From a phage: a stretch of DNA of 20,833 nucleotides. Positions 3,612 through 13,164 of this stretch are shown in pieces; the first letter of the stretch is position 1; every line of letters begins with the position of its first letter. Location: assembly GCA_012060505.1 (NCBI GenBank), contig GCA_012060505.1_3027.1, one strand, 5' to 3'. The notes beneath the pieces are model-generated. The model was not told the origin of the DNA and made no database searches. It was given only the letters and a program-made list of their open reading frames with translations. Made by a program: the position numbers and the translations under genes.

Positions 3612-3651
3612 GGTACAGGTATATAATATCATATCCTGTACCAAAGTAAAC
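3612..3651 (-). promoter_or_regulatory. T4 early-type promoter upstream of the 30.7-like ORF, with the -10 inside an 8-bp inverted repeat
   Basis: Minus strand aaaataattGTTTAC-17 nt-TGaTATTAT; inverted repeat GGTACAGG...CCTGTACC flanks the -10. Confidence 0.6.
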
Positions 3652-4011: not shown

Positions 4012-4044
4012 TAATACTATCACAAAGGAACCATACTGTAAACA
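4012..4044 (-). promoter_or_regulatory. T4 early-type promoter upstream of the 30.8-like ORF
   Basis: Minus strand GTTTAC-18 nt-TGaTAGTAT, just after the terminator; inverted repeat CCTTTGT...ACAAAGG reaches into the Shine-Dalgarno. Confidence 0.45.
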
Positions 4045-4906: not shown

Positions 4907-4914
4907 TATTTATA
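4907..4914 (-). promoter_or_regulatory. T4 late promoter consensus TATAAATA upstream of rIII
   Basis: Exact TATAAATA on the minus strand in the 31-rIII intergenic region, about 140 nt before the rIII ATG. Only exact match I found; the 8-mer is expected a few times by chance in AT-rich sequence. Confidence 0.4.
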
Positions 4915-9462: not shown

Positions 9463-9812
9463 TTAGAAAGGTCCTGGATGTCTTCTGCGAACTTGTTGAA
9501 GGAGTTGTTGATTTGTTTTTCAACCAATCCTGGCTTACGAGCCACCACATCCGCCTTCTTTGCATCTTTGCGCAGTTTTTCATTTTCACGCTCAATAGCA
9601 GCAATCGCCTCACGATTTTTATTATTCATCGCATCAATATAATTATACTGAATTCGCAAATTATTTAATGCTAAGGCGTTTTCATTGGCCGTTTTTGTAA
9701 TTTCAGTAACTGATGTTTCTAATCTTTCTACCTTATTTTTTAAAATAATAGATGTTCCGCCAAATGCTATTACAAGTAATAGCAATCCAGCTGTAAAATT
9801 ACTTACATGCAT
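9459..9812 (-). CDS. Inner-membrane spanin (i-spanin), 117 aa; T4 pseT.3 equivalent
   Basis: Single N-terminal transmembrane helix (FTAGLLLLVIAFGGTSIIL) followed by a charged, heptad-like periplasmic region; start overlaps the alc stop. Confidence 0.7.
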   Translation of the reverse strand: MHVSNFTAGLLLLVIAFGGTSIILKNKVERLETSVTEITKTANENALALNNLRIQYNYIDAMNNKNREAIAAIERENEKLRKDAKKADVVARKPGLVEKQINNSFNKFAEDIQDLSK

Positions 9813-10309
9813 AAAGTTTTAATAACCTCTATAATATCGTCTTGAGAAAGACCGTTAATTAAAATATGATGTTCAGCCGGAGATTTAGAAATTTTAAAGC
9901 ACGCCGCAACATCTTCTGCCATATCCGATGCGCTACGATTTGGATTACTAATTCCAAGACGATGCTTTCCAGTCAAAGGATTAACGATGATATAGCATTT
10001 ACAGCTATTAATGTGAACATTAGGTTGAGTCTGATTAATGAATACTTCACAATCGTATTTCGCAAACTGATTTTCTAAAAAGACTTTCATCTCCTCAACC
10101 GCATCGGGAAGCATATCACGGGCTTGCTCAAGACGACGATTTCGATATTCTTTAGTGGTCGTTTTCCGCTTGACTTGCTTAGCTAAATCTTTCTTAAGAT
10201 CGGTGATATATCCAACTCGACGATTTCCTTTGAATACAGAAATCCCATCTGTAGTATCACCGTATGCTTCAACGACCATTTCAGTAGTAATAAGCTGCAA
10301 ATCCATCAT
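9803..10309 (-). CDS. alc: Alc, host transcription elongation inhibitor
   Basis: MDLQLITTEMVVEAYGDTTDGISVFKGNRR... matches recollected T4 Alc; tandem ATG start, may be 10306. Confidence 0.85.
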   Translation of the reverse strand: MMDLQLITTEMVVEAYGDTTDGISVFKGNRRVGYITDLKKDLAKQVKRKTTTKEYRNRRLEQARDMLPDAVEEMKVFLENQFAKYDCEVFINQTQPNVHINSCKCYIIVNPLTGKHRLGISNPNRSASDMAEDVAACFKISKSPAEHHILINGLSQDDIIEVIKTLCM

Positions 10310-10310
10310 A

Positions 10311-10368
10311 AAGTCCTCATGTTATGTCAGTAAGACTACTATAACACAACATGAGGGACTTGTAAACA
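10311..10368 (-). promoter_or_regulatory. T4 early-type promoter upstream of alc, inside a 13-bp inverted repeat that includes the alc Shine-Dalgarno
   Basis: Minus strand GTTTAC-AAGTCCCTCATGTT-gtgtTATAGTagtcttactgacat-AACATGAGGACTT-t-ATG; 13/14 arm match with one bulged C. Confidence 0.6.
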
Positions 10369-10370
10369 GC

Positions 10371-11958
<1,588 letters not shown>

Positions 11959-11985
11959 AATAAAATGGGCCTTGCGGCCCACTCC
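11959..11985 (-). terminator. Hairpin with GCAA (GNRA) loop between nrdB and denA; possible attenuating terminator or stability element
   Basis: Minus strand reads GGGCC-gcaa-GGCCC followed by ATTTTATTATG, the last ATG being the denA start. Confidence 0.5.
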
Positions 11986-13164
11986 TTAAAAGTATTTTTT
12001 AAAACTCATCATAACTTTATCATCAACATCATTATCAATCTGTGCAACAAGATAAGATGACAGCTCTACTTCTTGCGGTGCAGATTGAACATTATCAGAA
12101 TTAAGATATTCACGAATCCAAGGATATGGATGTTTAACCGGAGCATCGGTAATTGGGCATGGAAGACCACACTGTTTCATACGAGATACAGTTAAGTAAT
12201 CAATAAAGCTCCACATGCTATTTGTATTTAATCCAGGAACATCGCCATCTTTAAATAAATGAACTGCCCAATCTTTTTCTTGGCGGTTAACTTCCATGAA
12301 AATATCAACTGCTTCTTGTTCACACTCTTTGGCAATTTTAACCCATTCATCACCATCAGTACCGGATTGAAGTTGACGAATAATATATTGTGTACCTTTA
12401 AGATGAAGCTGCTCATCACGTGCAATAAATTTCATAATCTTCGCATTACCTTCCATGATTTCCATGTTCTTATGGAAGTTGAAAGTACATGCAAAGGATA
12501 CATAAAAACGAATAGCTTCCAGAGCATTGATAACGTGCAGACAGAGATAAAGCGACTTCATCAGGTCTCGTTTACATTCTTCCAAATGAGTGAGACTGTT
12601 TGAATATGCTTCTAAATCATATTCATTTTCAGCAAAATAACTAAAGTTTTCTTTGGCGTTTTCCCAAATACGTGTCTTGTCCAGAACATCATCATAATAA
12701 CGACCAATAGATTCAGCACGTTTCATGATAGCTTTATCTAATACAATCTCATCAAATACCTTTGACGGATCAGTATAAAGATTTCGCATAATATGAGTGT
12801 ATGAACGACTGTGAATGGTTTCACTAAAAGTCCATGTAGCAACCCATGTATCAAGGCTTGGGTCTGAAATCAATGACATAAGTACAGCAGACGGTGCACG
12901 ACCCTGAATGCTATCTAGAAGTGATTGATACTTCAGATTATTAGTAAAAATATTTTGCTGATACTGAGGAAGCTTATTAAATTGCGCAGCATCCATCATT
13001 AAGTTTACTTCTTCAGGACGCCAGAAAAATGACAACTGCTTTTCGGTTAAATCTTCAAAAACTTTATGACGTTGAATATCATAACGCGCAATACCAAGAC
13101 CTGAACCAAAAAACATAGGTTCTTTTAAAACATCAACTGGATTTGTATTAAAAACTGTGCTCAT
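11986..13164 (-). CDS. nrdB: Ribonucleotide reductase class Ia small subunit, uninterrupted
   Basis: 392-aa continuous ORF, ferritin-like R2; position after nrdA. No intron-like interruption. Confidence 0.9.
   Translation of the reverse strand: MSTVFNTNPVDVLKEPMFFGSGLGIARYDIQRHKVFEDLTEKQLSFFWRPEEVNLMMDAAQFNKLPQYQQNIFTNNLKYQSLLDSIQGRAPSAVLMSLISDPSLDTWVATWTFSETIHSRSYTHIMRNLYTDPSKVFDEIVLDKAIMKRAESIGRYYDDVLDKTRIWENAKENFSYFAENEYDLEAYSNSLTHLEECKRDLMKSLYLCLHVINALEAIRFYVSFACTFNFHKNMEIMEGNAKIMKFIARDEQLHLKGTQYIIRQLQSGTDGDEWVKIAKECEQEAVDIFMEVNRQEKDWAVHLFKDGDVPGLNTNSMWSFIDYLTVSRMKQCGLPCPITDAPVKHPYPWIREYLNSDNVQSAPQEVELSSYLVAQIDNDVDDKVMMSFKKYF

Follow-up and report, generated by a model that had tools for sequence, protein, structure and literature searches.

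In the first minutes of infection, Alc turns off host transcription, and its gene lies directly downstream of genes for late proteins. In time-resolved omics data for T4, alc is classed as an early RNA giving an early protein, rnlA as an early RNA giving a late protein, and denA as a middle RNA giving a late protein. The analysis concerns the short spacer between rnlA and alc.

The stretch of DNA analysed here (the window, 20,833 nt in length) is a segment of a Tequatrovirus (T4-like) phage that matches 499 phage records, with RB51 and RB68 as the best matches (97.5% identity). According to the open reading frame (ORF) list and the T4 annotation, its minus strand carries nrdB, denA, rnlA, alc, pseT.3–pseT.1 and pseT. 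The nrdB gene (11986–13164) is uninterrupted in the window and encodes 392 amino acids; T4 nrdB has a group I intron with I-TevIII. The rnlA gene, which encodes RNA ligase 1, occupies 10371–11495 (minus strand; ORF list and annotation of the homologous T4 locus), from an ATG at 11495 to a TAA at 10373–10371. The alc gene, which encodes the inhibitor of host transcription, occupies 9803–10309 (minus strand; ORF list and T4 annotation) and has in-frame ATGs at 10309 and 10306, the second of which is the start annotated in T4 and lies 7 nt from the Shine–Dalgarno sequence (SD). The spacer of 61–64 nt between the two genes reads, on the minus strand from the rnlA stop, TAA, GCT, GTTTAC, AAGTCCCTCATGTT, GTGTTATAGTAGTCTTACTGACAT, AACATGAGGACTT, T and ATG ATG.

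An early promoter embedded in a hairpin

The promoter in this spacer is of the T4 early σ70 type. Its −35 element GTTTACA (10361–10367, minus strand; TTTACA at 10366–10361, GTTTAC at 10367–10362) begins 3 nt downstream of the rnlA stop and was identified by consensus scan, conservation and an existing annotation: the RefSeq record of phage Lutter carries a computationally annotated 'promoter' exactly on GTTTAC…TATAGT. Promoter features are absent from the GenBank record of T4. The extended −10 element, composed of TGt and TATAGT (10338–10346, minus strand; TATAGT at 10343–10338), is supported by the promoter scan and by conservation. Together, TTTACA and TATAGT match the consensus at 10 of 12 positions, with an upstream TG and a canonical 17-nt spacer. 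From this geometry, transcription is predicted to start at an A in CTTAC, the seventh nucleotide after the −10 element (10331, minus strand), yielding a 25-nt leader. Across the window, the pattern GTTTAC-N16–19-TAnnnT occurs six times, always on the minus strand, against 0.98 occurrences expected. A late promoter was considered for the same region and rejected, as TATAAATA is found in the window only at 4907 (minus strand) and 10907 (plus strand). We make no case for an UP element either: at about −60 to −82, the A/T-rich tract within the 3′ end of rnlA is too distant from the promoter.

The promoter is interleaved with an inverted repeat. The 5′ arm, AAGTCCCTCATGTT (10348–10361, minus strand; sequence reading and fold), holds the anti-SD CCCTC and occupies the spacer between the −35 and −10 elements, a part of the promoter with little sequence constraint. 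The 3′ arm, AACATGAGGACTT (10311–10323, minus strand; sequence reading and fold), carries the alc SD, GAGGA (10318–10314). Between the arms lie the 24 nt of GTGTTATAGTAGTCTTACTGACAT (10324–10347, minus strand; sequence reading), which hold TGt and TATAGT (10346–10338). The arms form 13 base pairs with a single bulged C (10355/10356). A preliminary description of this DNA had placed GTTTAC, the two arms, TGtTATAGT, GAGGA and the ATG at these positions and had counted 13 of 14 matches between the arms with one bulged C, all of which we find to be correct. It had also described the promoter as lying in a 24-nt loop; the length and the TGtTATAGT content hold, but the loop is not open, as the fold adds a further 5 + 4 base pairs, giving a 22-bp interrupted helix closed by a 4-nt apical loop. 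The −10 element is thus partly within the helix, and the predicted +1 position, A10331, falls in the 3′ strand of the helix, past the apical loop. Folding, which had been proposed as a check, yields a stable hairpin: the 64-nt element (10367–10304) has an energy of −24.8 kcal/mol, compared with −10.3 ± 2.4 kcal/mol for shuffled sequences (z = −6.1; none of 200 shuffles is as stable), and a 101-nt context gives z = −5.3. By contrast, the leader of the promoter-started RNA, which would lack the 5′ arm, is essentially unstructured (−4.8 kcal/mol, z = −1.1). The hairpin has no family match in Rfam 15; membership of a known family was rejected because the lone hit, a chance microRNA match, scored 18 bits against a gathering score of 135 bits.

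The two RNAs that could span this junction differ in the predicted accessibility of the SD. In a 180-nt read-through context, all five nucleotides of GAGGA are paired, with a computed probability of being unpaired, P(unpaired), of 0.028 (partition function); in the promoter-started RNA, this value rises to 0.71. Overall, the SD is computed as about 97–100% paired in the former RNA and about 60–70% free in the latter. These computed values (0.028 versus 0.71) agree with the earlier proposal that RNA reading through from rnlA folds GAGGA into the stem and that RNA started within the loop leaves it free.

Conservation and compensatory change

Alc homologues are present in 1141 phage records. We compared the rnlA–alc junctions of 14 genera in GenBank and of 37 IMG/VR loci, the latter obtained with a scan using an Alc profile; a single-protein scan of IMG/VR gave just five near-identical loci. 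The promoter elements lie at a constant distance from the alc ATG in the 14 genera. The −35 element is TTTACA in 12 of them and TGTACA in Tulanevirus and in Gaprivervirus VR26, and TAnnAT follows after a 16–17-nt spacer in all 14, with a 6-nt discriminator. The predicted +1 is an A in 13 genera and a T in Mosigvirus PhAPEC2, and the predicted leader is 22–29 nt long (22–25 nt, except for 29 nt in Zedzedvirus). This common geometry provides strong comparative support for a functional promoter, and the match to the T4 early consensus at a fixed position before the alc ATG bears out the view that an early-type promoter is internal to the repeat. In PhAPEC2 (L017, 438–1001), the annotated alc start abuts the rnlA stop, so that the ORF would span the predicted promoter; the annotated start is probably over-extended, the conserved ATG being at 501.

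Within Tequatrovirus, the hairpin is maintained. T4 has the same element, with a G instead of an A at the position equivalent to 10352, by which an A–U pair becomes G·U. None of the 11 Tequatrovirus copies that we read carries a pair-breaking change: substitutions in T2 and EO1 are located at the bulge, and in ACG-C40 a G inserted into the 3′ arm pairs with the bulged C. The terminal 54 nt of the GenBank record of Staphylococcus phage SAJK-IND (MG010123.1, 31824–31877) are 96% identical to a T4-type alc leader, which probably reflects contamination or a chimeric assembly.

Between genera, the arms differ in sequence and stay complementary, as in Karam (TCTCCATTTGGTT/AACCAAATGGAGA), Winkler (TCCTCATTTCGTT/AACGAAATGAGGA), Jiaoda (TCCTCATCAG/CTGATGAGGA) and Braga (CCTCTCGTTTTT/AAAAATGAGAGG). 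Alignment of 13 leaders with MAFFT followed by RNAalifold gave no consensus structure, the registers of the arms differing by genus. We therefore used a register-free covariation test, in which every promoter spacer was paired with every leader and own pairs were compared with cross-genus pairs by permutation. For the 14 genera, the duplex between a spacer and its own leader averages −16.6 kcal/mol, compared with −9.3 kcal/mol (s.d. 3.7) for cross-genus pairs, a difference reached in none of 100,000 permutations; 35 distinct leaders give −16.8 versus −9.8 kcal/mol, again with none of 100,000 permutations. Explicit double changes are also observed: UCUCC/GGAGA in Karam corresponds to UCCUC/GAGGA in Winkler, an A–U pair in Karam to G–C in Gelderland, and a C–G pair in Winkler to U–A in the IMG/VR locus L037. 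A compensatory series is seen at one position, with A–U in L046, G·U in PM2 and G–C in L048. The arms in related phages thus do show compensatory changes, the lack of which the preliminary description had named as evidence against its proposal. Judged by these comparisons, the alc promoter-hairpin is a real element under selection.

The relation of the hairpin to the SD varies among lineages. The computed P(SD unpaired) is less than 0.03 for the long RNA and 0.28–0.71 for the short RNA in Tequatro-, Gelderland-, Karam-, Jiaoda-, Roskilde-, Dhaka-, Braga- and Winklervirus, and further IMG/VR lineages show the same contrast; in about ten lineages, then, read-through RNA is computed to have its SD more than 97% paired, and promoter-started RNA to have it mostly free. 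Tegunavirus and Kanagawavirus have a hairpin that leaves out the SD, with a perfect helix of 10–13 bp around the −10 element that ends 2–5 nt before the SD (P(SD unpaired) 0.38–0.46). Two leaders from Acinetobacter-phage-like IMG/VR contigs (L063 and L065, at about 320–400) likewise have perfect hairpins that flank only the −10 element and stop before the SD, TTTGATAAGAC/GTCTTATCAAA in the one and TTTGATATGGCT/AGTCATATCAAA in the other; that these two covary shows that a hairpin leaving the SD unmasked is under selection. Finally, no such hairpin is found at alc in Mosigvirus, L061, Tulanevirus and Gaprivervirus, so the hairpin is dispensable. In Gaprivervirus, a truncated alc-like ORF is inserted between rnlA and alc (L014, from VR26, at 186–500, and also L040, L041 and L062), and this ORF is preceded by a terminator-like hairpin, GGGG…CCCC with a T-run, that overlaps a weaker promoter.

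A family of hairpin-embedded early promoters

The design is not confined to alc: T4 has a family of early promoters embedded in hairpins, and the alc element is one of them. A census of 140 kb of assembled T4 sequence gave 32 candidate early promoters close to a start codon. Their own spacer–leader duplexes average −11.2 kcal/mol, compared with −7.1 kcal/mol for cross-promoter pairs (reached in none of 100,000 permutations), and 13 of the 32 are at or below −12 kcal/mol, compared with 7.8% of cross pairs. At least 4 nt of the SD are paired in eight of these 13 hairpins (ndd.4, alc, alt.-3, denV, regB, mobD.5, nrdC.8 and motB.2), and only the −10 element is flanked in the other five (30.7, ipI, mobD.2, dmd and motB). 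The sequence upstream of alt.-3 (T4 AF158101, 123092–123036; L029) is a copy of the alc cassette, identical at 55 of 57 positions, that runs from GT-GTTTAC exactly to the SD GAGGA. A 90-nt alc leader query finds two matching places in nearly all of the 500 Tequatrovirus records, probably because of this copy. On the minus strand of the window, four other early-type promoters also have an inverted repeat that spans the −10 element: at 3651–3623, 7063–7034 and 18801–18772, the SD lies outside the repeat, and at 4043–4014, upstream of the homologue of T4 30.8, the 3′ arm has the SD AAGGAG.

For 12 of the 13 T4 hairpins, the sense RNA is more stable than the antisense RNA (mean difference 4.9 kcal/mol, p = 0.0005), owing to G·U pairs. 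Hairpins were selected for this comparison on either strand, as selection on sense energy would have biased it. The sense-strand bias argues for selection on the mRNA, not on a DNA cruciform.

SD accessibility was also computed for T4 genes in their read-through context. Of the 28 genes that have an early promoter 40–85 nt upstream, 10 have a masked SD (P(unpaired) < 0.05); of the 98 remaining minus-strand genes, 8 do (Fisher p = 0.0009). SDs directly downstream of early promoters that are more than 95% paired in this context include those of regB, denV, modB, motB.2, nrdC.8, 30.8, rnh, e.8 and 55.6. Among the eight other genes are e, I-TevI, I-TevII and segB, the masked sites of which are known from experiment, and their recovery together with alc validates the method; genes 3, 55, 42 and 26, which have no early promoter, also have an SD that is more than 95% paired.

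Two known kinds of element resemble the one at alc. In T4, the genes e, soc, 49 and I-TevI, and also I-TevII, I-TevIII, mobE and segB, have masked translation-initiation regions that are opened by embedded late promoters; the review that describes them does not mention alc (Uzan & Miller 2010). As in these late-promoter gates (Aeh1 for mobE), RNA started further upstream is computed to hide the alc SD in a helix, the promoter lies inside the structure, and transcripts from the predicted start would lack the 5′ strand. Unlike in these gates, which rely on gp55 late promoters, the alc promoter is a σ70 early promoter, TTTACA-17-TATAGT, with no TATAAATA nearby, and its 5′ arm lies within the −35/−10 spacer. 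The analogy with e, soc and I-TevI that had been drawn for this locus, with an early-type in place of a late promoter, therefore stands in silico: SD sequestration and an internal promoter are found, and a late promoter is not. As the embedded promoter is early, the gate would open in the first minutes and close later, and the temporal sense would be reversed.

The second kind is the promoter-early stem-loop (PeSL), described in RB49/phi1 and later in PST/T4 and nt-1/KVP40 (Arbiol et al. 2010; Comeau et al. 2014). A PeSL is composed of a σ70-like early promoter (TTTACW-N17-TAYWAT in T4/PST) and a stem-loop, most often between the −35 and −10 elements or overlapping the −10, followed by an SD and an ATG; PeSLs are intergenic and repeated in the genome, and their stem-loops have been interpreted as terminators or attenuators and as recombination sites, the SD being counted as a distinct 3′ module. 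The alc element shares the intergenic position, the early promoter, the stable overlapping stem-loop, the SD and ATG that follow, and the repetition in the genome (the 55/57 copy before alt.-3, and the same design at 13 of 32 T4 early promoters). It differs in that the 3′ arm holds the SD, that the predicted start and at least part of the −10 element lie in the helix, that there is no U-tract, and that it is located at a conserved, core-like junction and not in a hyperplastic region. The alc element is thus a variant of late-promoter hairpin gates and PeSLs, not a new category.

The literature that we searched contained nothing relevant on an alc promoter or hairpin or on maps of T4 transcription starts. 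The alc case and the general pattern of SD masking at early promoters are undescribed there, although older T4 literature may mention the element. Valerie and colleagues, in 1986, reportedly remarked on stem-loops upstream of ipIII, ipII and denV.

A model for alc expression and its alternatives

We propose that the rnlA–alc spacer is a hairpin-embedded immediate-early promoter that makes translation of alc depend on its own promoter, a reading to which we assign a probability of about 0.55. In this model, host σ70 RNA polymerase would initiate near A10331 from TTTACA-17-TGtTATAGT. The resulting transcript would contain the 3′ arm only, GAGGA would be free, and Alc would be made in the first minutes of infection. 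RNA entering from rnlA, whether early read-through, middle or later transcripts, would also hold the 5′ arm and would form the 22-bp helix that buries GAGGA, leading to poor translation of alc. Both the start at 10331 and the lowering of Alc synthesis by masking, and with it the translational effect of the element as a whole, are thus predictions of the model. Transcripts reading through from rnlA into alc are plausible because the published table of T4 middle promoters has no entry between PI-TevIII/PnrdB and Pcd and because no terminator is predicted. Just upstream of the rnlA ATG (11495) and overlapping the denA stop, the window has a MotA-box-like site (11549–11522, minus strand) composed of aTGCTTcc (TGCTT at 11547–11543), 13 nt, and TACTAT (11527–11522); it resembles a middle promoter for rnlA and is absent from that table. 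The omics classes given above for alc, rnlA and denA fit, without proving, a translation of alc that is uncoupled from later RNA containing rnlA.

Could the stem-loop instead act on transcription? As an insulator of the PeSL type, it would attenuate or terminate transcription from rnlA, the overlapping promoter would restart it, and inclusion of the SD would be incidental. Early promoter, overlapping stem-loop, SD and ATG follow one another precisely as in the published PeSL composite, one RB49 stem-loop has been reported to cut downstream lacZ expression as strongly as rrnB T1, and hairpins that exclude the SD covary as well. At the same locus, the ZZ1/L064 hairpin is followed by TTTATTCTTTTT and resembles a canonical terminator overlapping the next promoter, an arrangement of junction hairpin and immediate restart that the window element shares in outline. 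However, the alc stem is followed by UUUAUGAUGG in Tequatrovirus and by tracts rich in A in Karam, Dhaka, Jiaoda and Winkler, and most lineages thus lack the U-tract that intrinsic termination requires; a terminator scan found no sites in 9500–12500, and a Rho-independent terminator was rejected on these grounds. Insulation also leaves unaccounted for a 5′ arm that begins with an anti-SD in about ten lineages, and we consider it unlikely as the main function. The hairpin might also serve in RNA processing or stability, either protecting the 3′ end of rnlA mRNA after endonucleolytic cleavage or forming an RNase III-type site that separates the rnlA and alc messages. The helix is long (22 bp) and interrupted, selection acts on the sense RNA, hairpins occur at gene junctions with or without the SD, and RegB is known to cut T4 early mRNAs in intergenic SD regions (Uzan & Miller 2010). 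Yet the alc SD, GAGGA, does not contain the RegB target GGAG, and the presence of the promoter inside the helix in every lineage is left unexplained, which makes such a role quite improbable.

An element acting as DNA would leave the RNA structure as a by-product, the repeat being either a site of recombination and shuffling, through mobility of PeSL cassettes, or a cruciform that aids promoter melting. The 55/57-identical cassette copy before alt.-3, which extends exactly from GTTTAC to GAGGA, and the two matching places in almost every Tequatrovirus record are suggestive of mobility, and PeSLs are documented recombination points in the published work. But mobility accounts for the copies and not for the way in which compensatory changes have kept the arms paired at a single orthologous locus from genus to genus. 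In a cruciform, both strands would have to pair, whereas G·U pairs become A·C mismatches on the other strand and the sense RNA is the more stable in 12 of 13 cases; we regard a DNA-level role as very improbable. Least credible to us is translational coupling, in which the hairpin would keep the alc SD closed and be melted by ribosomes that terminate at the rnlA stop, with the result that polycistronic RNA would give Alc in proportion to RnlA. The distance from the rnlA stop to the 5′ arm is indeed just 6–10 nt in every genus, but in Tequatrovirus the UAA and the stem are 9 nt apart, which is generally out of reach of the helicase of a terminating ribosome, and Alc is an early and RnlA a late protein, the opposite of what coupling would give.

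Even under the promoter-dependent reading that we favour, masking of the SD may not be the sole selected function of the hairpin, or may not be the selected one at all. Covarying hairpins that leave the SD free, at alc in some genera and at five T4 promoters, mean that a function shared by all of them, be it attenuation of the PeSL type or a role in RNA processing and stability, could be primary and the recruitment of the SD secondary; with five of the 13 T4 hairpins making no contact with the SD, a function common to all 13 would not be SD masking. In this AT-rich leader, no part is richer in G than the SD, which any selected hairpin would tend to recruit.

A wider and more tentative possibility, to which we give rather less than even odds, is that hairpin-embedded σ70 promoters form a general immediate-early translational gate of T4-like phages, with about ten T4 early genes translatable only from transcripts of their own promoters. 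The genes concerned could be alc, regB, denV, modB, motB.2, nrdC.8, 30.8, rnh, e.8 and 55.6, and the small ORFs ndd.4, mobD.5 and alt.-3. If so, synthesis of their products would end once the early promoters are shut off, despite persisting read-through RNA. Such a gate would be a cis-encoded counterpart of the inactivation of early mRNAs by RegB and a partial answer to why early mRNAs give early or late proteins.

For alc, a cis-acting device that ties the protein to its immediate-early promoter would explain early synthesis directly downstream of genes for late proteins. The published PeSL stem-loops would gain a second, translational reading, and phage engineering would gain ready-made parts combining a strong promoter and an insulator. 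The occurrence of the design at about one third of T4 early promoters, and its maintenance by compensatory change across genera of Straboviridae, suggests a rule whereby translation proceeds from the proximal promoter only. The unexplained, abrupt drop in the synthesis of early proteins could follow in part from such a rule, as could the mismatch that has been reported between 'early' mRNAs and their early or late protein products.
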